Source: Octopus vulgaris
Taxonomy: Eukaryota
Assembly: GCA_951406725.2 (NCBI GenBank)
Contig: OX597831.1
Coordinates: 78,120,001-78,184,000 of the forward strand
Direction of reading: 5' to 3'
DNA: 64,000 bases
Both the position numbers and the translations under genes were made by a program. This document shows positions 331-63,913 of the stretch, piece after piece (positions within the stretch are counted from its first letter, which is position 1; each line of letters opens with the position of its first letter). Under the pieces are notes generated by a model. That model worked only from the letters and a program-made list of their open reading frames with translations. It was not told where the DNA came from and did no database searches.

Positions 331-1348
331 GTATGTGGGCAGCTCTGATAAGATCCGAATAAGGGTCGAAACAGATTTCAATCTACGGAACAATAGGTAA
401 ATTCCACGTTTGTATGCCTACCACGCATGTTTACACTCTTGCAGATGCACGCACAGATACATACACACACATACATATCTCTCTTTTACTCTTTTACTTG
501 TTTCAGTCATTTTACTGTGGCCATGCTGGAGCACTGCCTTTATATATGCTGTTATATATTGGAAGAGTTGTTATATCAATAACGAATCACAAGCATTAGT
601 TGTGTTTCACTGCGTTAACCATTTACCTAATCAAATAAGCGATTGCTTGGTGAATCGGTCAGAATTACAGGAGCATGTCGTTCATATCATCGTTAAAGGG
701 CAACAAAAAGGACTCAGACGGTATTATCGGATTGATTGATTGACCGAACAATTAATCAACGAACTGATTAGTTAATTTATTAGATGGTTAACTAGTTGGC
801 GAATAATAGATGAAATAAAACAGAACCAGCGCGTGTGATAATCATTGCTATAAAGATTCTCCCGAGTCACAGCAAAGTCTTTATCATCAATAACCTTGCA
901 GACCAAATACAATACACCACACCCAAACACACAAATACCACACATACACACACATACACTTGCACAAACACAGGCACACACATACACACATACACATACA
1001 CACACGCGCACCCACAACACACACACACAAACACACACACACAAACATATATATCGTTTACATTTTCATTACATGTAGATCAACAAAAAAAGAGTTTCAT
1101 CCAGTGAGAAATAAATATCATTTTATGTACACAATTACAAAAGTGCTGCAGAGAGTTTCATGCTTTAAGATACATTAAATTGGTACATGTATATAACCTG
1201 TCATATATCCCCAAACAATCGTTCAGGCTCAGTTCATAATGTTACATGTATTTAAAAACTAGGACACTGGACTATGAGAAAATATGAGGAGAAAATGCTG
1301 GACTATGATAAAAACAAATACGTATTTTATTAAGTCTGTTGCAAGTAA

Positions 1349-1723
1349 TCTATATATATAAAACTGAAGTCGTCTGTGTATGGCATGTTTGGTAATCTTC
1401 AACTAACACTGCGGCGCAAGTTGACCAAAATTAAGAGTATGATAGAAGAAGGCTTGCTCTTCATTCCGTAAAAGATAAAATTCAAATCGGACCATCTTAA
1501 CACCAAAAACTATTTACCTCAAAAAGGTACTTTTTTTTCTATGAAAATCCCTAATTTTTACGATTTTTTTACTGTTATGTTGCCATTTTTCGGTGTAGTT
1601 CAACCAGAAAAAATGTTGACTTAAAGAGAATAACAAGCTACATAATGCAAACTTTTTACTTTTCAGAAATTCCAATTCTAAAGGGTCGAAACAAACCCGA
1701 GCAACGCCGGGCGATACTGCTAG
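1349..1723 (+). mobile_element. non-autonomous Helitron
   Basis: 5' A|TCTATATATATAAAA; subterminal hairpin CCCG-agcaacgc-CGGG (1696-1711) followed by terminal CTAG (1720-1723); no ORF. Confidence 0.7.
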
Positions 1724-2043
1724 CTATAAATAAAACAGAAAATTTATCACGCCTGGGATCTTCAAGAGTATGTTTAACAACCAAGGAATTTTTACGGGTA
1801 ACCGCTAGTTACTTTGTAATACCCAGGCCAGCGATCCCTTGAATTCACTGAAGTGATATTGAAGTAATTTATTTCTAATTTACTTTAGACCAACTAATTT
1901 GTATTTATTTTTGTACGGCAAAGACGTTAGCTGTTGACTTTTAAGAAAGCGTTGTGTATATGATTTTGTGTTTGTTTTGTATATTTATGTATCTGCATGC
2001 ATGTATGTGTGTGTGTCTGTGTGTCTGTGTCTGTGTCTGTGTG

Positions 2044-2099
<56 letters not shown>

Positions 2100-2323
2100 G
2101 TGTCTCTGTCTGTGTCTGTGTGTATGTGTTTTACAGTGGCAAAGATATTAAGATATGATAGACTATAAAGGTTTGATGACAGCTGGTGTTTACCATTTTT
2201 AACTCCGCCCTTCAACCGTACTTTTGCGTATGTGTGGTTGTGCGTGTATTTGTGTGTCTGTATGAGCACATATCTATGTACTCGTACACACATAAACGTT
2301 TGTATTATACACACACACGCACT

Positions 2324-2354
<31 letters not shown>

Positions 2355-2369
2355 CTGTTATATTTAGGC

Positions 2370-2517
2370 GGTTGTCAATAAAACTCAAATTTTTGGATGC
2401 CGGGACTGAAGTCTGCTCCAGCATCTCATCAGTTATTATATGTGTGTTTGTATGTATGTGTACACGCGTGTGTGGGTATGTATATAGATATATATAGATA
2501 CATGTGTGTGTGTGCGT

Positions 2518-2554
<37 letters not shown>

Positions 2555-2755
2555 CCTGTGGATTCTCTGAACGAAGTATTAATTTCCGTATGCCTATTGG
2601 AGTAATTTCACTTTATTCAACCGTTATCTTTTCATAGCATTTGTCTTAATAACTGATGAGATGCCAGAGCAGACTTCAGCCCCGGCATCCGAAACTCTGA
2701 GTTTTAAAATGACAACCAACTAATTGTCACATATTATATGTATAGATAAATTCTC
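2370..2755 (+). mobile_element. PLE-like non-coding element end with 5' inverted copy
   Basis: 2370-2438 is an imperfect inverted copy of 2647-2717; related sequence at 10696-10870 and 29925-30070; flanked by microsatellites. Confidence 0.7.
2641..2715 (+). ncRNA. type I hammerhead ribozyme (somewhat decayed)
   Basis: CTGATGA (2653-2659), stem II GATGCC.../...GGCATC, GAAA (2691), stem III ACT/AGT, stem I TTGTC.../...GACAA. Confidence 0.7.
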
Positions 2756-2835
2756 TGTCTGTCTGTCTCTGTCTCTCTGTCTCTCTGTCTCTCTCTGTCT
2801 CTCTCTCTCTCTTTATATATGTATATATATATATG

Positions 2836-2867
<32 letters not shown>

Positions 2868-2868
2868 T

Positions 2869-3520
2869 ATTTAAATAATGAGGGAGATAAATTAATATTA
2901 ATTTTAATATCAATTTAAAACCAGTAGTCTAGCATACAAAACATCTGAGAAGTCAGAGAAAATTCTAATATATGTGTATATTGACAGGGCAAGACTGCTA
3001 GGTAGTCGGCCGTATGCTAGAAACAGATCATCAACGATCAAACTACAAAGGAAATTCTCTAGAGGAAAAATTCAGCGAACATCAGAACCAAATTTGGCGG
3101 GTAGGACAGATGAAAATTTATATAAAAAAAAAAACAGAATTAAATGCATACCTCGGTTTCGGCCTTTAACAAACGAATTACTTACATAATTCAAATGTCC
3201 GTGGCTTCATCAGTGCATTCGTTCCGTGTGAATGCAAACTGAAAAAACTAACCCCAGCTTTCTGTGCCAAGACAGACACGTGCTTAGTTTTACCGATTAC
3301 ATTAGGGATAAAATTTCAAATGTCTTGGTTCTGGCGCGCTAAGAAATTCCTGAAGCGAAGGGCTGCAGTAAATAATTCACTGCGGTTAGTGCTTACTACT
3401 AGAGAACGTATTTATTTCAATATTTAAATAATGAGGGAGATAAATTAATGTAGTTTGATCGTTGATGATCTGTTTCTAGCATACGGCCGACTACCTAGCA
3501 GTCCAGCCCTGCCAATATAC
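2869..3520 (-). mobile_element. non-autonomous PLE/retrozyme-like element, 553-bp unit
   Basis: 28-bp direct repeat 2869-2896 / 3422-3449; inverted copy 2976-3047 / 3449-3520; internal HHR; (TA)n on both sides; no ORF. Confidence 0.75.
3143..3219 (-). ncRNA. type I hammerhead ribozyme
   Basis: Minus strand: AATGCA-CTGATGA-aGCC...GGCc-GAAAC-cgag-GTA-TGCATT; perfect 6-bp stem I. Confidence 0.8.
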
Positions 3521-3540
3521 ATATATATATATATATATAT

Positions 3541-3858
3541 CCGTCGGTTACGATGACGTGTGTTCCAGCCGATTCGGTCAACGGATCAGCCTGTACGTGA
3601 AAGTAGCGTACAGGTGGATGAGAAATCTCCATAGAAACGCACACACTTATCGTAGCTTTTAGGGAAATTCAGTGTGACACATTTAGTGTACCAAGGCTGG
3701 CCCATTTAACTTCGGGTACAACTGATTTTGGCTATCTGAGTGAACTGGCGTAAAGTGAAATAAATTGTCTTGCTCAAGAATTAAACACGCCGCCAGGAAT
3801 CGAACTCATGTCGTTATGATAGAGTGCCAAATACTCTTACCACTGAGACAAGTGCCTT
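3541..3858 (-). mobile_element. tRNA-derived SINE (decayed)
   Basis: Minus head TCTCAGTGGTAAG ... GAGTTCGATTCC, CORE-like CTTGAGCAAGAC, ends in (TA)n. Confidence 0.6.
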
Positions 3859-4052
3859 CTCTGCTTCATGACATTTCCCTAAAGATGAAGTCTTCATTTC
3901 ATAGTTTTAATTTTTCTTGTTCTTCTGTAAAATGCATCACTTTATTTTGCGACCAATCCAACAACATTCCAGCGATATAACGGTATCATGGAAGCCATAT
4001 TTATGTTGATCACATTAAACATTTGCTGGCCTTGTGCAAACATTCGAAACCA

Positions 4053-4129
<77 letters not shown>

Positions 4130-4134
4130 ATTAT

Positions 4135-4366
4135 GCGTGTAGGCCTTAGGCCTGGTGGTTAGGGTGTTACACTCATGATCGCGAGATCGTGGTTTTGACT
4201 CTGCGACCGGGTGGTGCGTTGTTCTTTAGCCAAAACCCATTATCTCACCTTGCTCTGCCTTCACATCGACACCTGTCGCGTGGCGGCACACTGCGCACCT
4301 GTTCAGACAACGTCGATTTGATGAAGAGAGTGAGCTAATGTGCGGCACGTACATTTGATCACTATA
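4135..4366 (+). mobile_element. tRNA-derived SINE (decayed)
   Basis: GGCCTGGTGGTTAGGG ... GGTTTTGACTC head resembling the SINEs at 19090 and 47128. Confidence 0.55.
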
Positions 4367-4550
4367 GCTGTTCACCACCAGTGAACTAAGGTAACCCCAC
4401 CTAAGTTTCGAGCATCATCCGGAGTAATGGGAGCGGTTCCAGACAGTGCTGTTTTCTGCAAGTGCCCCACTCTTAATGCATCCACTGCACTCTCAAGATG
4501 TACTTCTCAAGAGTTTTAGTCATTGTTCCCAGCGCTCCGACAATTGTTGG

Positions 4551-4616
<66 letters not shown>

Positions 4617-9777: not shown

Positions 9778-10255
9778 ACAAAATGGGACAAGAACGCAAA
9801 ACATCCAGATAGACGATACAAAAAACATGAACGAGTCATTCGAAGCCTTTAATCCTCAGTCAAGAACCGGATCATCCTCGCAATTTCGGCTGATTAATCT
9901 TGAGATTGCTCCAATCCGGCCGCCCCCTCGAAAAACTAAGCTAACAACATTAGATTCCTTGGAAAAAAGGATCGAATGTATACGAAACAAGGACGGAAAA
10001 ACGGACGATGTTACACGATTATAAATACAAAAATTATACGAAAAAAAAACAATACTACTAATAATAACAGGTTAGAACAACAGGCTTCTTTCGACCGGAG
10101 ACGAATTGAATTCAGCTGGCGTGTTGGGAATTAAGCCTTACGGCAGACGGAAAGGTTCGATGTGACAGTGACCATGGTCGAACGCAAAAGGGCTAACAGT
10201 CGGCCAACGGTCACGTGAGAAGAGAAGAGAAAGAAAAAGAGGAATAAAGGAATTA
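9778..10255 (-). mobile_element. non-coding repeat family F1 (PLE/retrozyme-like)
   Basis: Homologous to 13074-13527, 44820-44937, 52165-52650 and 62885-63400; 3' end GTTCTTGTCCCA.TTTG into (TA)n. Confidence 0.8.
9844..9909 (-). ncRNA. non-circularly permuted hammerhead candidate (F1)
   Basis: Minus: GCAAT-C-TCAAGA ttaatc AGCC-GAA-ATTGC linker TCTTGA-CTGAGGA-ttaaa-GGCT. Confidence 0.7.
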
Positions 10256-13073: not shown

Positions 13074-13080
<7 letters not shown>

Positions 13081-13524
13081 ACTAGCCACTGATTGCTGGC
13101 CTCCTCGTGGCCAGCAGCCGTTGTGGCAAGACACACTTTGTTGTCTCTCTGTAGCCCTAAGGCTTGTTTTCTAACGCCAGCTCAAAAATTTGCTCGTCCT
13201 GTCGAAAAGACGCTTGTCTGTGACGTCCTGTTTTTGTTGTTATTATTATTATCATTATTGTTTTTACGTATTTTTGTATTCTTATTCGTGTAACATCGTC
13301 CGCTTTTCCGTCCTTGTTTTGTATACATTCGAGACTTTCTTCCAAGGAATCTAATGCGCTTGGCTTAGATGTTCCTTTGGGGCTGGTCAGGTCGGAGCAA
13401 TCTCAAGACTAATCAGCCGAAATTGCGAAGATGATCCGGTTCTTGACTGAAGATTGGAGGCTTCGAATGTCCCGTCCGTGTTTTTTGTATCGTCTCCTAA
13501 ATGTTTTGCGTTCTTGTCCCAGTT

Positions 13525-13527
<3 letters not shown>
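13074..13527 (+). mobile_element. family F1 element
   Basis: Homology to 9778-10255; (TA)n on both sides. Confidence 0.8.
13397..13462 (+). ncRNA. non-circularly permuted hammerhead candidate (F1)
   Basis: GCAAT(13397)-C(13402)-TCAAGA; AGCC-GAA-ATTGC (13415-13426); TCTTGA-CTGAAGA (13441-13453)-ttgga-GGCT. Confidence 0.72.
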
Positions 13528-13619: not shown

Positions 13620-13818
13620 AGCACCACCAGCAAAAATATTTTTTCCTCTGTCTTCCCTTCTTGGGATCTTTCCTTCTCCTTGTTTCCGACGAAGAGCTCC
13701 GCTCGAAACGTTAAACCCTCCTTCCCTTCTTTCCTGAGCGTCAATAATACTTTAATTGTTCCACGTCCTCGCGTTGCTGTTTTTTCTCTTTTTTTCTGTG
13801 TTTTCTTGTTTGGATTAA

Positions 13819-30433: not shown

Positions 30434-31435
30434 TAAATAAAATAAAACATATGCATATATATATAAACATATATGTACGTACCTACCTCTACATGTACAT
30501 ATACACGCATATATGAGTACAGGACACCAAAAGGACGTCGAACACAATGAGAAACGAAAACATAGACACAAACCAAAGGAACTGGACATTTTTTTAAACA
30601 ACAAAAAAATAGAGTACAGGACAATTAACTCAAAGAAAAAACCCCTTCTTCAGTCGCTATGGTTTCATCTACTCTACGTTTCGAAGGATAAAAGCGAGAC
30701 GTATCTTCGACAAGAAACTTTCCTTCCTGCGAAAAGCAAATCAATTAAAATTCTGAGATCTTTTCGCAGAGGGGTAAAAAATGGTAACAAAAACAGGACA
30801 GTAACGACAGTACAAAATATAAACAGTAAAAGACAGGACAAGGAAAAACAAGATAAGAAGGGCTGTTAACGCCGAACGAAAAAAAGTATTGCGAACGCGG
30901 ATTTTTTTATGAACGACGAGCGGAGCAAAAAGAATTGTCGTCCATACCTTGAGATGGCCAGGCCAGAAAGGCAGCAGCGGAAGTCTCGTCGCGGGTCAAT
31001 GACGGGAGGGGGAGGAGGAGCAAGAGAAAGGGAGAGAAGAAGGGGAATGGCTGCGAGAAAACCATGAAGAATGGGGAGGGGGAGAGAGAGAGTGAAGAAT
31101 GAGAGAGAGGAAGAGACAAGTTAAGTAGAGAAAAAGGAAATCAAAGAATGAAGGCTGAGAAAGGGATGGGACAGAAAGGTTAAGAGTGCGCATCAAAGTT
31201 AATATCAAGAACAAAACTTGATATAAAGAACAATCTTACTTAAAAGGGATGCGTGCGTTTCGTCATATAATATATTAATAAATAAAATAAAACATATGCA
31301 TATATATAAACATATATGTCCGTACCTACCTCTACATGTACATATACACGCATATATGAGTACAGGACACCAAAAGGACGTCGAACACAATGAGAAACGA
31401 AAACATAGACACAAACCAAAGGAACTGGACATTTT
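30429..31435 (-). mobile_element. family F2 retrozyme/PLE-like element: about 845-bp unit with about 163-bp terminal direct repeat
   Basis: 30429-30592 nearly identical to 31274-31435; no real ORF; TA-type flanks. Confidence 0.85.
30642..30703 (-). ncRNA. non-circularly permuted hammerhead candidate (F2)
   Basis: Minus: TACGT-C-TCGCT tttat CCTTC-GAA-ACGTA 16-nt linker AGCGA-CTGAAGA-AGGGG; GUC site with C at 30698. Confidence 0.75.
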
Positions 31436-35375: not shown

Positions 35376-35409
<34 letters not shown>

Positions 35410-35434
35410 GTCTATCTATCTATCTATCTATCTA

Positions 35435-36719
35435 TCAACACCCGTTAAAAGGAGGGCTGGGCATGCCGTGGTTGATGATGCGCAGACACGCGCTGAGACT
35501 GCGGCATCTCTGGCTCTATGTAGACGACGGTGAACAGGTGTGGTCGCCGTTTGTGAGGCACGCTTTCCCGCAGCTCGTCTCCATGACCGAACTGCAGTCG
35601 TGGATCAAAAAGAGGCCGAGGAAGGGCGAATGGCACCGCGAGTGTCGCGTTGCTCTCAAGCAACTCTGCCGTCCTGGGTCGACCTTAAGTGACTTCAACA
35701 CAACCAAAGCATTCTATAGGGGTTTAGTGGAGGGGAGGTACGACGACGAGCTCGGGGCGAACCTGGACGTCGACGAGGAGTACCTGACCCGCCTGTTCAG
35801 GACGACCTTCGGGCCAGGGCCCATGGACAACTTCCAGAGATCCCTGGCCTGGCAGTGCTACCGAGAAGCGCTACCCGTTCGGGATAAGCTCTACAGACAC
35901 GGCTCGAGAAACACGGGGCCGACCTGCCCGAGATGCGGTCAGAGCGACGAAACCGTTCTGCACGCACTCGTTCAGTGCCCAACAATTTCCGACCTGTGGG
36001 CTTGTGTCGAACAACTGCTGTCACGTGTGGGACGAGTCGGTTTATCAGCTGAGTCTATCGTCAATATTGTCACGCCTCCTTCCTTCAAACGGGAAGGAAG
36101 AGCTATTTTCATCATCCTTGTGGCTATGGCGAAAGAATGTATCTGGTGGACGCGTCTGAAAGGATTGGAGACAAACACTTTCCTCTCTGGTCAATCTCTC
36201 ATCAACTTCTTCAAGTACCACTTGAAAAGGAAAGTGAGAGTAGAGAGGCAAGTTTTGTCTAGCGAATGTTTTAAAAAAAGATGGGTGAATGTAGCAAGAA
36301 TGGCACGTATGAATGACGAAGCCACCTTGAGCATAGTCCTATGAACCCAGAAATCGAAAACAGAGAGTTGCTTATTTGCAAAAAAAAAAAAAAAAAGAAA
36401 TATAAAATGTGACTTCATTGACCGAGGTCACCGTGGTCTTTTCCGTAGGCTTTTCTTTCCACGGGTAAACCTCACCTGTCCTCCCCTTTACACTTCATAT
36501 TGACATTTCTGTGATAACGATCCCTATTGATCAATTTTTTTTCCTCTCCCCCTTTTTTTTTAACCCCCCTTTTTTTGTCCTCTTTCTCTCCTTTTACGAT
36601 CCCTTTTGATCGAAACTCCCCCTTCCTTTTTTTTTTTTTTTTTAAAACCTTCAAAAGAAAAGCTCTACCTTGTAATTTGTTCTATCTGTGTGCAGCCCTG
36701 TGTGGCTAATAAAGAAACA

Positions 36720-36720
<1 letters not shown>
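35435..36720 (+). mobile_element. Tx1-type LINE, 5'-truncated (ORF2 C-terminus, ORF 35463-36344)
   Basis: zf-RVT-type motif LAWQCYREALPVRDKL..CPRCGQSDETVLHALVQCP; T-rich 3' UTR; (TATC)n on both sides. Confidence 0.92.
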
Positions 36721-36782
<62 letters not shown>

Positions 36783-36876
36783 TTATCTATCTATCTATTT
36801 GTCTATTTATCTACCTATGTATCTGTCTGTCTATCTATCTGTCTGTCTTTGTATGTATGTATGTATTTATCTATCT

Positions 36877-38112
36877 CCCGTTAAAAGGAGGACAGGGCAG
36901 GCCGTGGTTGATGATGCGCAGACACGAGCTGAGACTGCGACATCTCAGGCTCTCTGTAGACGACGGTGAACAGGTGTGGTCGCCGTTTGTGAGGCACCCT
37001 TTTCCGCAACTTGTCTCCATGACCGAACTGCAGTTGTGGATCAAAAAGAGGCCGAGGAAGGGCGAATGGCACCGCGAGTGTCGCGTTGCTCTCAAGCAAC
37101 TCTGCCGTCCCGGGTCGACCTTGATTGACTCCGACACGACCAAAGCATTCTATAGGGGATTAGTGGAGGGGAGGTACGACGACGAGCTCGGGGCGAACCT
37201 GGACGTCGACGAGGAGTACCTGACCCGCCTGTTCAGGACGACTTTCGGGCCAGGGCCCATGGACAACTTCCAGAGATCCCTGGCCTGGCAGTGCTACCGA
37301 GAAGCGCTACCCGTTCGGGATAAGCTCTACAGACACGGCTCGAGAAACACGGGGCCGACCTGCCCGAGATGCGGTCAGAGCGACGAAACCGTTCTGCACG
37401 CACTCGTGCAGTGTCCAACAAGTTCCGACCCGTGGGCTTATGTCGAACAACTGCTGTCACGTGTAGGACGAGTCGGTTTATCAGTCGAGTCTATCATCAA
37501 TATTGTCACGCCTTCCTTCAAACGGGAAGGAAGAGCTATTTTCATCATCCCTGTGGCTATGGCGAAAGAATGTATCTGGTGGACGCGTCTGAAAGGATTG
37601 AAGACAAATACTTTCCTCTCTGGTCAATCTCTCCTCAACTTCAAGTACCACTTGAAAAGGAAAGTGAGAGTAGAGAGGCAAGTTTTGTCTAGCGAATGTT
37701 TTAAAAAAAGATGGGTGAATGTAGCAAGGATGGCACGTATGAATGACGAAGCCACCTTGAGCATAATCCTATGAACCCAGAAATTGAAAACAGAGGGTTA
37801 CCCACTTGCAAACAAATGTGGTAACATGTAAAAATATTGACCGAGGTTACTGTGGTCTTTTCCGTAGGCTTTTCTTTCCACAGATAAACCTTATCTGCTT
37901 CCCCCTTTACACCGTACATCATGACACTGTGATACACGATCGCTATTGATCGTTCTTTTTTCTTTTATTTTGTTCCTTTTTTCTCTTCTTTCCCTTTTAC
38001 GATCCCTTTTGATCGAAAACCTACCCCACTCTATTTTCCCACCAAAAAAGAAAAGCTCTACTTTGTAATTTGTCCCGTCTGTGTGCAGCCCTGTGTGGCT
38101 AATAAAGAAACA
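36877..38112 (+). mobile_element. Tx1-type LINE, 5'-truncated (ORF to 37774), different 3' UTR variant
   Basis: Same ORF2 end as 35435-36720; (TATC)n on both sides. Confidence 0.92.
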
Positions 38113-44765: not shown

Positions 44766-44819
<54 letters not shown>

Positions 44820-44820
<1 letters not shown>

Positions 44821-44937
44821 ATACAAAATGGGACAAGAACGCAAAACATCCGGACAGTTACGTGATACAAAAATGAGACAACAAAACATCCGGATAGACG
44901 ATACAAAGAAAGCAAGGACGGGTCATTCGAAGTTTTC
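44820..44937 (-). mobile_element. family F1 3' fragment (ribozyme not included)
   Basis: CAAAATGGGACAAGAACGCAAAACATCC...GGTCATTCGAAG matches 9779-9845. Confidence 0.75.
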
Positions 44938-47850: not shown

Positions 47851-50182
47851 TTGTATTGGTATCCTTTCTGTCTCGGGAGACAATAGAGTTGCGCATTTTT
47901 TTTTTTTTTTAAGTCTAGTCCGGCTTTTATACTTCATGTCCTGATACATTTCCTGCTGTGGCTGTGTAGTCCTATCCTGGACAAACACTCCCTCTGGCAG
48001 GTACCGCAAATGTAATGGAGACTGTTCCTGGCTGGTTTTAGTGCCATAGTCTCTTGTTTACGTCTCTTCCTTTCTTTCCATTTCTCCTCTCTCTCTCTGT
48101 CACTCTTTTGTATTCCCTCTTACTGTACGTCGCCATTCTCCACGGTTGCCGGCAACTGCCTCCCAACCGCTAATATTGATGTTGCAGGCCTTCATATCCC
48201 TTTTGCAAACATCCCTGTAACGTAAGATCAGTCTACCCACAGACCTAGTACCCCTAGCAAGCTCTCCGTAGAGTATGTCCTTGGGGATTCTGCCATCTTC
48301 CATACGGCTAACATGCCCAAGCCATCTCATACGTCTTTGTGTGAGGAGTGCAAACATGCTTGGTATTCCTGCTTGCCTGAGGACATCTTTGTTGGGGATA
48401 TGATTCTGCCATTTGATGCGGAGGATTTTTCGGAGGCAGCGCTGGTGAAAGATGTTTAGGCGACACTCTTGGCGTGTGTATAGCGTCCAGGTCTCGCTTC
48501 CATACAGTAGAGTGCTGAGTACACATGCCTGGTAAATCTTCATTTTCGTGGTCTTGGTCAGCTTATTGTTGTCCCAAGCCCGTTTGGAGAGTTGGGCCAT
48601 CGCAGCAGCTGCCTTTCCAATGCGTATATTGAGCTCAGCGTCAAGGGATAGGTTGTAGGTGACGGTAGAGCCCAGATAGGTAAACTTCTCCACCTCTTGT
48701 AGTCTGTGGTCTCCAATATGTATGTTTGGGATGTCCGATGTAGCCTGGCCCATGATGTTGGTCTTCTTAAGGCTGATAACTAAGCCAAAGTCGTTACATG
48801 CTTGCTCAAAACAGTTAATGAGCCTTTGGAGGGCTTCTGTGTGTGTTACCAGAGCGGCAGCATCAGCAAATAACATCTTCTTGATCAGGACGTTTCTGAT
48901 TTTGGTCTTGGCACGCAGGCGCGAGAGATTGAACAGTTTCCCGTCACTTCTACTGTGCAGAAACACTCCGTCATCTGATGTCTGAAAGGCATGTGAAAGT
49001 AAGAGTGAGAAGAAGATGCCAAACAATGTAGGAGCTTTATCCCGTTTTTTATTTGGAAGGCGGATGATGTTGAACCGTTGTGCTGTATGGTGCCTTGCAT
49101 GTCATCATGGAAAGACTTGATGATCCTCAGCAGCTTTGGTGGACATCCGATTTTTTGGAGCAGGAGGAAGAGGCCAGTTCTGCTTACCGAGTCAAAAGCC
49201 TTTGTTAGATCAATGAAGGCCATATATAATGGCATTTTCTGCTCTCTGGACTTCTCCTGAAGTTAGCGTATGGAGAATATCATATCGATAGTTGATCTGC
49301 TTCTTCTAAAGCCACACTGCGATTCCGGATAGATTCGAGAAGCAAGTAGTTGTAGACTGGCCAGGATAATGCGGGCAAAGGTCTTTCCAACAGTGCTTAG
49401 AAGGGATATACCACGGTAATCGTTACAATCACCACGGTCACCTTTGTTTTTGTAAAGCGTAATGATGTTGGCATCCCGCATATCCTGAGGGGCTGTACCC
49501 TCTTCCCAGCACTGACACAGAAGCTCATGAAGGTGCCGAAGCAGGATGGTGTTTTTGCCGGCTTTGATAATCTCTGAGGGGATGCCGTCTTTTCCCGGAG
49601 CCTTATTTCTTGCTAGGGAGTCTGCTATAGATGGCGGACTGTCAAGTTCGCACATGACTGGCAAGATCTTGACACTCTCGACTGCAGCCTCAGCCACTGT
49701 GGTCTCCCGTGAGTAGAGATCCTGGTAGTGCTCCAACCATCTATCCATTTGCTTGCCTTGATCCCTGATGAGATCTCCAGTAGTTGATTTCAGAGGGGCT
49801 GACTTGGTTGCGGGTGGACCGAGGGCCTTCTTCAAACCGGCATACATCCCACGGGTGTCGCCTCTGTCAGCAGCTGACTGGATACTCTGACAGATTTCCT
49901 GCCAATACCTATTTGCACAGCGTCTGGCTGTCAGTTGGGTTTTATTTCGTGCCTTTCTGAGTTCTTCGAGTGACTTTGTAGAAGAGTCGCTCTTGTATTG
50001 CACCAGAGCTGCACGCTTTGCTTCGATAACTGGCTCCAGCATTGAACCAATCTGGGTTTTGCCTTTCTCTCATGCCGAAAGTATCCAATGATGTCGTATA
50101 CAAGGCTTCCCTGATATAGTCCCACCTACTTTCAGCAGAGGAGGCTGGGCAGCTACTGAGGGCAACCATGATAGAAGCAGCA
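47851..50182 (-). mobile_element. RTE-clade LINE, 5'-truncated, frameshifted reverse transcriptase
   Basis: ORFs 49263-50042, 48885-49235 and 48100-49026: NKAPGKDGIP, YRGISLLS, ESQCGFR, FIDLTKAFDSV, LFNLSRLRAKTK, MLFAD, RWLGHV, GRIPKDILYGEL. Confidence 0.95.
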
Positions 50183-52164: not shown

Positions 52165-52650
52165 CGTAACAGTCGGACAGTTAGATGATACAAGGAGGGA
52201 GAGGAAATAGTAAGGTCATTCGGAGCCTTCTATCGTCCGTCGAGTTCCAAATCATCCCTTCAGTTTCGACCCGTTAGACTCGAGACTGCTGCAATCTGGC
52301 CGGCCCCAAGAAAATCTAAGCTAAGAGCTCTAGATTCTTTGGAAGGAAGCGGGCGAATATATACGAAAACAAGGAGGCACAAAAAAAACGGAGGAATGTT
52401 ACACAATTGCAAATACACACAAGACAATAACAATAGGTGTCATTCGACTAAAATCAACTTGAATTAACCTGGTATATATGGAGTGAAGCTTTACGGCAGG
52501 AGCATGAGGGATGGAAGTCACGGGAAGGAATATAAGAGATCCAACACGGATGGAAGTCGAACCAAGAAAATAGGGTCAAACTTACCGGAACACCGGTCAC
52601 GTGGAAGGAGAGGAGAGAGGTCGGTGGCAGAGGGACGAGAAAGAGGAAAA
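52165..52650 (-). mobile_element. family F1 element with permuted HHR at 52223-52289
   Basis: Minus: CAGT-C-TCGAGT ctaac GGGTC-GAA-ACTG linker ACTCGA-CGGACGA-tagaa-GGCTC; core mutated. Confidence 0.75.
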
Positions 52651-53291: not shown

Positions 53292-54340
53292 AGAGTAGAA
53301 AATGCCATTATATATGGCCTTCATTGATCTGACAAAGACCTTTGACTTGGTAAGTAGAAAAGGCCTCTTCCTCCTGCTCCAAAATATCGGATGTCCACCA
53401 AAGCTGCTGAGGATCATCAAATCTTTCCATGATGATATGCAAGATACCATACAGCACAATGGTTCAACATCAGCCGCTTTCCAAATAAAGAACGGGGTAA
53501 AGCAAGGCTGAGTCCTTGCTCCTATATTATTTGGCATTCTCTTTTCGCTGCTGCTGTCACATACTTTTGAGACATCAGATGATGGAGCGTTTCTGCGCAG
53601 TAGAAGTGACGGGAAACTGTTCAATCTCTCGCGCCTGCATGCCAAGACCAAAATCAGAAGCGTCCTGATCAAGGAGATGCTATTTGCTGATGATGCCGCT
53701 CTGGTATCACACACAGAAGAAGCCATACAAAGGCTCATCAACTGTTTTGAGCAAGCATGTAACAACTTTGGCTTAGCTATCAGCCTTAAGAAGACCAACA
53801 TCATGGGCCAGGCTACATCGGACATCCCAAACATACATATTGGAGACCACAGACTACAAGAGGTGGAGAAGTTTACCTGTCTTGGCTTTACCGTCACCTA
53901 CAACCTATCCCTTGATGCCGAATTGAATATACGCATTGGAAAGGCAGCTGCTGTGATGGCCCAACTCTCCAAACGGGCATGGGACAACAATAAGCTGACC
54001 AAGACCACAAAAATGAAGATCTACCTTGCATGTGTACTTAGCACTCTACTGCATGGAAGTAAGACCTGGATGCCGTACACACGCCAAGAGCGTTGCCTAA
54101 ATATCTTTCACCAGCGCTGCCTCCGGAAAATCCTTGGCATCAAATGGCAGAATCATGTCCCCAACAAAGATGTCCTCAAGCAAGCAGGAATACCAAGCAT
54201 GTTTGCACTCCTCACACAAAGACGTATGAGATGGCTTGGATATGTTAGCCGTACGGAAGATGGCAGAATCCCCAAGGATGTACTCTACGGAGAGCTTGCT
54301 AGGGGCAGTAAGTCTGTTGGAAGACCGTTCTTAGGATACC
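53292..54340 (+). mobile_element. RTE-clade LINE internal fragment
   Basis: FIDLTKTFDLV, GVKQG*, MLFADDAAL, GRIPKDVLYGEL; same family as 47851-50182. Confidence 0.93.
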
Positions 54341-54661
54341 AAGCAAATTCCATTGAACGACAATGAAAACCTTTAATGGTACTGTTCAGACAGAGCAAAC
54401 AATAGTTTTGTCTTTATGCAAACAGCTGCTTAGGTTATCCTTTATTGAGATATTCCCGATGAGCCGAGATGAGAACCCGGCTTCTTTTTACAGACAGCCC
54501 GCTTGTTTAACCTACAAGGTTAAACAAGCTGCGAGGTTTAACCCACAAATGCGTAAGGAATAAGATCTTTTGTTCAATACACTTTCGCACCATTCACTTC
54601 TGCCTTGGTTCAGCATAACAAGGAACAGCCAAGTGACATCTATCTATTTTTCTTTTTATCA

Positions 54662-62884: not shown

Positions 62885-63400
62885 GAATACCAAAACTGGG
62901 ACAAGAACGTAAAACATCCAGACAGACGATACAAAAAAACAAGGATGGATCATTCGGAGCTTCCTTTCTTCAGTCGAGTTCCAGATTATCTTTGCAATTT
63001 CTGCTGGTTATACGCGAGATTGCTCCAATCTGGCCAGCCCCTAGAAAAAACTAAGCTAACAGCATTAGATTCCTTGGAAGAAAGCAGCGAATGCATTAAA
63101 AAACAAGGACGGAAATAACGGAGAAATGGTACGCAAATACAAATGCAAATAAGGACATTAACAACAGGTGTCTTTCGACTAAGGACGAATTAAATTAAGT
63201 GTGTGAATGTGAAGCCTTACGGCAGGGACATAAGACATGACAGGCATAGGGAGGAATATACATGTTGCACGGGTGGAAGTCGAACCAAGACAGGAAAGTC
63301 AGACTTGGCCGAACAGCAGTCACGTGGAGAGAGAAGAGAGAGAGGTCGAGGCAGAGGGATAGAAGAATTAGGGAGGAACGAGAAGAAAAGAAAAGGGACA
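62885..63400 (-). mobile_element. family F1 element with permuted HHR at 62958-63023
   Basis: Minus: GCAAT-C-TCGcGT ataacc AGCa-GAA-ATTGC linker ACTCGA-CTGAAGA-aagga-aGCT. Confidence 0.78.
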
Positions 63401-63603: not shown

Positions 63604-63913
63604 CGCAAAAAATGTTTATTTAATTCATTTTGCGGGAAGGCTGCTTCGGCCTGGCTGTGTTCTGCCCTTACCTTCGAAACACGCATTGAGTCGAAACAGG
63701 GGCAGCTGAAGAAGGGGAATGTTCCTTGCATTGCTTGTCTTGTACTCTGTTTTTTCGTTGTTAAAAAAATTCGTTTCCTTGTTTGATTTTATGTTTTCGT
63801 TTCTACGTTTATTTGTGGTGTCCTGTACTCATATATGCATGTATATATACACATAGATGTAGGTATGTACATATATGTATGCATGTATGCATATGTTTTA
63901 TTTATTAAATTGT

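Follow-up and report, generated by a model that had tools for sequence, protein, structure and literature searches.

A probable hammerhead ribozyme variant opened between A9 and G10.1 in non-coding repeats of Octopus vulgaris and in Naiad elements

Background

The hammerhead is a self-cutting RNA, and the locus described here raises the question of whether one can be built when its parts come in an unusual order. The locus lies in a stretch of 64,000 nucleotides of the Octopus vulgaris genome (contig OX597831.1, positions 78,120,001 to 78,184,000; hereafter the window). Copies of a repeat family, F1, carry a putative cleavage site, a GAAA box and a CUGANGA-like core there, and a second family, F2, shares this arrangement. 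The original prediction read F1 as a permuted hammerhead in which CUGANGA is followed by a 5-nt insert and only then by stem II.

Two permuted types are relevant here, both from Eckert et al. 2023 (PMC10085705): SGC, which corresponds to HRIMA-1, and CSG, which comes from two metagenome sequences only. According to the accessible text of that paper, no genome of a known organism was found to contain SGC. The same text assumes that CUGAnGA cannot be parted from the stem strands next to it, and gives inserts of more than 1–2 nt as unknown. The proposed 5-nt insert therefore needed testing.

The motif and its copies in the window

Four related F1 copies were present at the predicted positions, each carrying a site, a GAAA block and a CUGANGA-like block in the predicted order (Table 1). 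The two outer stems also agree with the prediction: stem III is GCAAU/AUUGC in some copies and CAGU/ACUG in others, and stem I is UCAAGA/UCUUGA or UCGAGU/ACUCGA, with the expected mismatch in the copy at 62.9 kb. By hammerhead analogy, the predicted cleavage site after C13402 is at the right position. The core proved less constant than had been claimed, as the copy at 52.2 kb deviates from CUGANGA. This copy and the one at 62.9 kb are likely decayed because of, respectively, the altered core and the A at position 11.1 together with the stem I mismatch. The interval first assigned to the motif, 13397–13462, holds the site, stems I and III and the core, but leaves out the essential bases 13381–13396.

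Table 1. Parts of the split motif and further copies in the window (positions counted from the first base of the window)
Feature	Position	Strand	Remarks
5'-truncated F1a copy	13075..13526	+	~450 bp of 706-bp non-coding unit; (TA)n on both flanks
Stem II 5' strand GGCUGG, G10.1 = 13381	13381..13386	+	upstream of site; partner 13413–13418
Helix B 5' strand (stem I–II clamp, "I" helix of SGC/CSG)	13387..13392	+	partner 13434–13439
Helix C 5' strand	13392..13397	+	partner 13461–13466
Stem III strand GCAAU, U16.1 = 13401	13397..13401	+	
C17, AUC site	13402	+	predicted cleavage 3' of this base, by hammerhead analogy
Stem I strand UCAAGA	13403..13408	+	
Block G: stem II 3' strand UCAGCC, G12-A13-A14-A15.1 (13419–13422), stem III strand AUUGC	13413..13426	+	
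Helix B 3' strand (13434–13439), stem I strand UCUUGA (13441–13446), core CUGAAGA (13447–13453)	13434..13453	+	
Linker leaving the core after A9, with helix C 3' strand CUUCGA	13454..13466	+	
F1a copy	9840..9925	−	core intact; upstream stem II weakened, 3/5 pairs
F1b copy	52220..52305	−	mutated core CGGACGA; likely decayed
F1c copy	62954..63039	−	C11.1 to A, stem I mismatch; likely decayed
F2a copy, split layout	30647..30726	−	upstream stem II GAAGGA/UCCUUC, helix B GUUUC/GAAAC
F2b copy, split layout	63636..63712	+	upstream stem II GAAGG/CCUUC

A descriptor for stems I and III found four matches in the window (F1 at 13401 on the plus strand and 9905 on the minus strand; F2 at 30699, minus, and 63660, plus), compared with two matches in 100 tile-wise shuffles. 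In a 600-kb genome sample that had been shuffled (three times) or reversed, the same descriptor had no match, but the real sample had none either. In an Rfam scan of the window, the best 150 of 262 matches were to simple repeats, with no hammerhead model among these. The RNAfold minimum-energy fold pairs 13381–13387 with 13412–13418. Nested folds were not more stable than those of shuffled sequences (z from −1.2 to +1.2); pseudoknots lie outside this model and the energies are uninformative.

Other elements are found nearby. A repeat that directly follows the F1 copy (13640–13700, plus strand; also at locus L242) starts with a minimal type I hammerhead-like sequence with the core CCGACGA. A further F1 3' fragment, at 44771–44935 on the minus strand, begins past the ribozyme core. 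RTE-like LINE reverse transcriptase (RT) fragments and zf-RVT frames lie at 48100–50069 (minus), 53512–54366, 35376–36344 and 36713–37774 (all plus). The RT-bearing frames were considered and rejected: they look like RTE-type LINE fragments and are unrelated.

Conserved pairing places the 5' strand of stem II upstream of the site

We collected 122 F1 copies by homology (49 of subfamily a, 34 of b and 39 of c), after 36 of 158 profile hits had been discarded as truncated or duplicate. The stem II proposed downstream of the core paired in 92% of cells in subfamily a, 73% in b and 54% in c, and the extra helix of the original prediction in 91, 50 and 29%. The downstream 10.1–11.1 pair was formed in 84% of cells in a, compared with only 15% each in b and c. 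A strand about 20 nt 5' of the site, in turn, pairs with the strand preceding GAAA in 97, 89 and 94% of cells; here a/c and b differ by a U-A to C-G change. Core bases were 89–100% conserved except N7 (56%), and the whole core was present in 84 of the 122 copies. C3, U4, G5, A6, G8, A9, G12–A15.1 and the U-H site were kept in the majority sequences of all three subfamilies.

A second collection was made with a descriptor. Its 170 hits clustered into eight subfamilies (159 copies) and 11 singletons, and the eight majority rows together with four singletons served as 12 representatives. The seven unused singletons comprised four F1b-like copies, one of the L138 type, one chance-like hit and one F2d-like copy with an upstream partner of only 3 bp. 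All 12 representatives, from both F1 and F2, have the split layout. Upstream stem II is at least 5 bp long in each of them and in 138 of the 159 descriptor-passing copies. It always begins with G10.1–C11.1 and comes in different versions (GGCUG/CAGCC, GGCCG/CGGCC, GGGCA/UGCCC, GGCCU/AGGCC and GAAGG/CCUUC). The chance of finding such a stem is 0.06–0.19 per representative, and the representatives are related.

Downstream pairing of at least 4 bp was seen in this collection in 34 of 39 F1a copies, 11 of 12 F1e copies and one singleton (F1f), but in only one of 35 copies of F1b–d. With an insert of 0–2 nt, none of 86 F1 copies had a downstream partner of at least 4 bp. In F2, 63 of 73 copies have a G-run 0–2 nt past the core that pairs over at least 4 bp, G-U wobbles included. 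The G-run that follows CUGANGA in F2b–e can also fold with the U/C run behind it as a hairpin of its own (63713–63730, plus strand, in the window); the G-run would then no longer be free to pair as stem II.

An alignment of 41 F1 copies, in which some F1d rows are mis-registered at helix B, allowed the whole structure to be assessed. A model of five helices paired in 89.6% of cells. Its covariation score was 0.404, compared with 0.228 after shuffling (none of 500 shuffles as high) and at most 0.14 in slid controls; as the copies are related, the shuffle counts are not probabilities. Stem III paired in 99% of cells, stem I in 98%, stem II in 87% (its first five pairs in 94%), helix B in 79% and helix C in 86%. 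Double changes were present in stems III and I, and in five of the six pairs of helix B. Stem II of the original prediction reached 77% and its extra helix 57%. Pair 10.1–11.1 was formed upstream in 38 of 41 copies versus downstream in 23 of 40.

The order of the motif is thus stem II (5' strand), clamp, site, GAAA, clamp, CUGANGA. The linker between stems I and II is 4 nt long in F1a–c and 0–6 nt across the representatives. Helix B, the clamp, has 4–10 bp, with one A·C mismatch in F1a, and uses the bases just 5' of the second strand of stem I. Helix C connects the chain leaving A9 with the base of stem III; it is found in most F1 subfamilies and in F2a, and is not universal. The region of the exit linker and helix C overlaps GGCU 13459–13462, which had been taken for stem II.

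These numbers bear directly on the fold first proposed, a type-SGC hammerhead with stem II downstream (behind 5 nt in F1 and 1 nt in F2), in which the upstream helix would be inhibitory or an alternative. Its downstream stem does pair well in F1a, F1e and F2, and its extra helix in F1a. Both fail in F1b–d, the 10.1–11.1 pair is mostly lost in b and c, and no partner directly 3' of the core was seen by eye in six animal Naiad elements treated below (coral, cubozoan, hydrozoan, ctenophore, acanthocephalan and squid). We therefore regard this fold as very unlikely. Since the conserved partner of stem II precedes the site, the supposed insert is better read as the start of a linker out of the core. 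Downstream pairing in F1a, F1e and F1f may be vestigial or belong to an alternative fold.

Judged by its parts, then, F1 has the core CUGANGA, GAAA and the U-H site of a hammerhead. It also has stems I, II and III with covariation and the G10.1–C11.1 pair, provided that the 5' strand of stem II is taken upstream. What F1 lacks is a junction of A9 to stem II, either direct or through 1–2 nt, that is, an intact block C. With all core bases and covarying stems I–III, the motif is likely a self-cleaving hammerhead with an open A9/G10.1 link that would cut after C13402; from the sequence comparisons we put the probability of this reading at roughly 0.75.

Anatomy and distribution of the F1 element

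F1 is a non-coding unit of 700–810 bp that occurs in partial tandems, is 5'-truncated and is inserted in (TA)n. The full F1a unit between two ribozymes at locus L095 measures 706 bp, and its longest ATG frame has 95 aa, so that there is no long frame. Tandem spacings are mostly 696–776 bp in F1a and 753–812 bp in F1b and F1c; they point to units of ~845 bp in F2a and ~775–800 bp in F2b. The 3' end is constant and runs into (TA)n; the distance from the site is ~140 nt in F1a and 130–235 nt in other subfamilies. The 5' truncations vary, some copies have inverted partner copies, and the partial tandems are head-to-tail. This anatomy is that of Penelope-like elements and of non-autonomous retrozyme derivatives, as the accessible parts of two reports describe them (PMC8557442, PMC7229834).

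The family is dispersed in the 2.8-Gb genome. First-look searches returned 1,205–4,588 candidates per ribozyme-region query, which are candidates only and not copy numbers. Some subfamilies are young, with 98–100% (F1e) and 97–99% (F2a) identity to their queries. F1 subfamilies were also found in contigs of four organism labels (query L095:1640–1955). An unbiased genome sample of 600 kb (60 stretches) held no intact descriptor match and three loci with partial or decayed family matches; the 64-kb window is therefore enriched. F1, F2 and Naiad copies are often inserted in one another's (TA)n tails (L378:2295–2756, L098, L368), which explains local clusters such as the six motifs in the window.

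Elements in partial tandems could also form the same helices between two units or transcripts, in the way that minimal Penelope hammerheads do; metazoan Penelope hammerheads indeed appear to act as dimers (PMC4209133). For F1 such a dimer seems improbable. All strands lie within 75–90 nt, stem III has a full 4–7 bp and is non-palindromic, and the linkers are short and conserved in length.

The same layout in Naiad Penelope-like elements

Naiads are described by Craig et al. 2021 (PMC8557442) as elements that prefer (TA)n and, as far as the accessible text goes, lack canonical hammerheads; some are said there to have "core" or "half-core" strings that fit no descriptor. We inspected by eye the last 240–650 nt of 24 of the 54 consensus records in supplementary File S5 of that paper. 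Record identities were taken from the file order, and two ends with ~200 characters of context were not counted. Nine of the 24 ends show the split layout, with unrelated stem sequences: two from octopus and one each from bobtail squid, a cubozoan, a hydrozoan, a ctenophore and an acanthocephalan, plus two near-identical ones from corals. Upstream stem II reads GGCUCC/GGAGCC in coral, GGGGA/UCCCC in the cubozoan, GGCC/GGCC in the hydrozoan, GGCCCA/UGGGCC in the ctenophore, GGCCCC/GGGGCC in the acanthocephalan and GACACC/GGUGUC in octopus. Weaker cases are the ctenophore, with a stem I of only 2 bp, and the squid, with four of five stem II pairs.

Four other ends, from three nematodes and one spider (Naiad_Hpol, Naiad-2_Nbra, Naiad-3_Nbra and Naiad_Smim), have an intact type CSG motif with a stem I–II clamp. 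No clear motif was seen in the remaining 11 within the stretch inspected. The 3' end of Naiad-1_Dst has core strings in C-G order and a possible upstream stem II partner, with neither layout clear.

A pattern made from the Naiad-type motif had 286 exact matches in the octopus genome and none in a reversed control. Of 30 of these loci, 23 had upstream stem II, and a wobble-rich downstream partner of at least 4 bp was likewise present in 23. Among 30 longer copies, one (L378) has a decayed Penelope-type RT upstream on the same strand. This RT was recognised by motifs only, and a tblastn search with a Neptune-like RT gave no match.

Like Naiads, as their accessible description has it, F1 and F2 use (TA)n targets and have partial tandems, inverted 5'-truncated copies and the same ribozyme layout, which in Naiads lies in the 3' UTR. 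The (TA)n targets, the constant 3' end, the partial tandems and the inverted and 5'-truncated copies are traits expected of non-autonomous Naiad derivatives. The 6-bp stem I of F2b is identical to that of the local Naiad motif. Unlike Naiads, F1 and F2 have no ORF, and BLAST of their units against the Naiad 3' region detected no homology beyond neighbouring insertions and TA repeats, so that the partnership with Naiads is one that we infer.

A Neptune-like Penelope family (L307–L335) was considered as autonomous partner and rejected. The split motif was absent from 29 of 29 of its loci, with one weak, chance-like hit, and its matches to F1 and F2 units were of low complexity only. The family is young and abundant (150 scored matches) and encodes an RT, a CxxC finger and GIY-YIG. 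Its 3' repeat carries a minimal type I hammerhead variant with a non-consensus core, CUGUUGA or CUGUCGA.

It is true that copies within a family are not independent, and a chance pattern or an assembly artefact could have been spread by repeat copying. Yet F1, F2 and the Naiads of four phyla each have independent stem sequences, shuffled controls came out near zero, and the family is present in contigs of four organism labels. Such an origin has a negligible probability, and covariation across families largely refutes it. The prediction of a conserved, non-circularly permuted hammerhead-like motif common to F1 and F2 has thus held up, and as the same layout occurs in Naiads of several animal phyla, the motif likely cuts the RNA of these elements into unit lengths.

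Proposed fold and function

In the fold that we propose, helix B and stem III would form a long bent hairpin whose loop contains the site, a stem I strand, the linker, a stem II strand and GAA. Stem II would be formed by the 5' flank pairing into this loop, and stem I by the 3' flank; CUGANGA would dock next, and the chain would exit the core past A9. As each flank helix would span no more than about half a turn, threading should not be needed. In Penelope hammerheads, a base between positions 9 and 10.1 is usually left unpaired (PMC4209133), which suggests that the backbone can exit the core at this point.

The open A9–G10.1 link could weaken the core, and the motif might be a hammerhead-derived fold that no longer cleaves and instead serves RT as a binding or priming structure. 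Many Naiad ends lack the motif, and two of the four F1 copies in the window are decayed. Yet core bases and the U-H site have been kept across subfamilies and phyla while the stems and N7 vary, and we consider a fold without cleavage unlikely. The motif appears to be a real, conserved and probably active variant outside the six named permutations.

If it is active, read-through transcripts of partial tandems would be cut once per unit, giving unit-length RNA. The ends of this RNA could refold the ribozyme and ligate to a circle, as in non-LTR retrozymes. The RT/endonuclease of a Naiad would nick (TA)n, and priming would take place at the internal TA-rich site of the unit, ~130–230 nt past the cut; more than one unit would be copied. 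The layout could have arisen by tandem duplication of a type-CSG ribozyme whose outer halves were then lost. On this view, the old stem II strand would survive as the G-rich stretch that follows CUGANGA in F1a/e/f, in F2 and in the local Naiad; this stretch may be a relic of the ancestral CSG stem II or, in F1a/e/f, a switch.

We think it reasonably probable, if somewhat less so than self-cleavage of the motif as such, that this seventh connectivity is an active ribozyme and, together with CSG, the hidden standard hammerhead of Naiads and of "Naiad retrozymes" across animals. Since all descriptors require stem II immediately 3' of CUGANGA, it would have been overlooked. A break between A9 and G10.1 contradicts the assumption behind the six-permutation scheme, and the families provide genomic, animal examples of non-circular hammerhead permutations. 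With compact monomeric motifs in young families, it becomes possible to test what self-cleavage contributes to Penelope transposition. For ribozyme engineering, the motifs offer a new opening point, with cargo between A9 and G10.1.

Comparison with known hammerheads and retrozymes

In the literature searched, types SGC and CSG occur only in the 2023 paper, and neither an A9/G10.1-open hammerhead nor a permuted hammerhead in Naiads was found; this search did not extend to subscription papers, nor to the supplementary files of Eckert et al. and of a bioRxiv preprint cited below. A 2011 survey of core variants, in its accessible part, likewise has no A9/G10.1 break.

Non-LTR retrozymes (PMC7229834; bioRxiv 10.64898/2026.07.22.740005) resemble F1 in being non-coding tandem units with one hammerhead each. 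They are thought to be Penelope-derived and have units of up to ~970 bp, according to the accessible text of these sources. Unlike F1, they carry type I hammerheads, and circular RNA has been demonstrated for them (PMC7229834), whereas F1 is known here from genomic sequence alone.

A pseudoknot hammerhead (PMC11300833) also builds its core with pseudoknots and an extra helix. It differs from F1, as described in the accessible text, in that A9·G12 and G10.1–C11.1 form the short stem of one loop, in a connectivity that is pistol-like rather than S-G-C.

The closest relatives are the two permuted types. F1 shares with SGC (PMC10085705, accessible text) the S-G-C block order, a short stem I–II linker, a clamp helix and a stem III joined to the second strand of the clamp. 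In SGC, the 5' strand of stem II and a clamp strand lie 3' of CUGANGA, whereas both lie upstream of the site in F1; an SGC-style 3' placement of stem II and clamp is partly possible only in F1a/e/f and F2. SGC was also not seen in genomes of known organisms, in contrast to the F1 motif in animal retroelements. With CSG, F1 shares the cyclic block order and the link of the first clamp strand to the site strand of stem III. It does not have the order C-S-G with an intact block C that characterizes this type: F1 is opened after A9, CSG after block G. By the block C test, the motif is therefore neither SGC nor CSG, and from its sequence it is expected to work like both. As F1 combines the stem III–clamp links of both types with an open A9/G10.1, it can be described as a circular permutation with the break inside block C.
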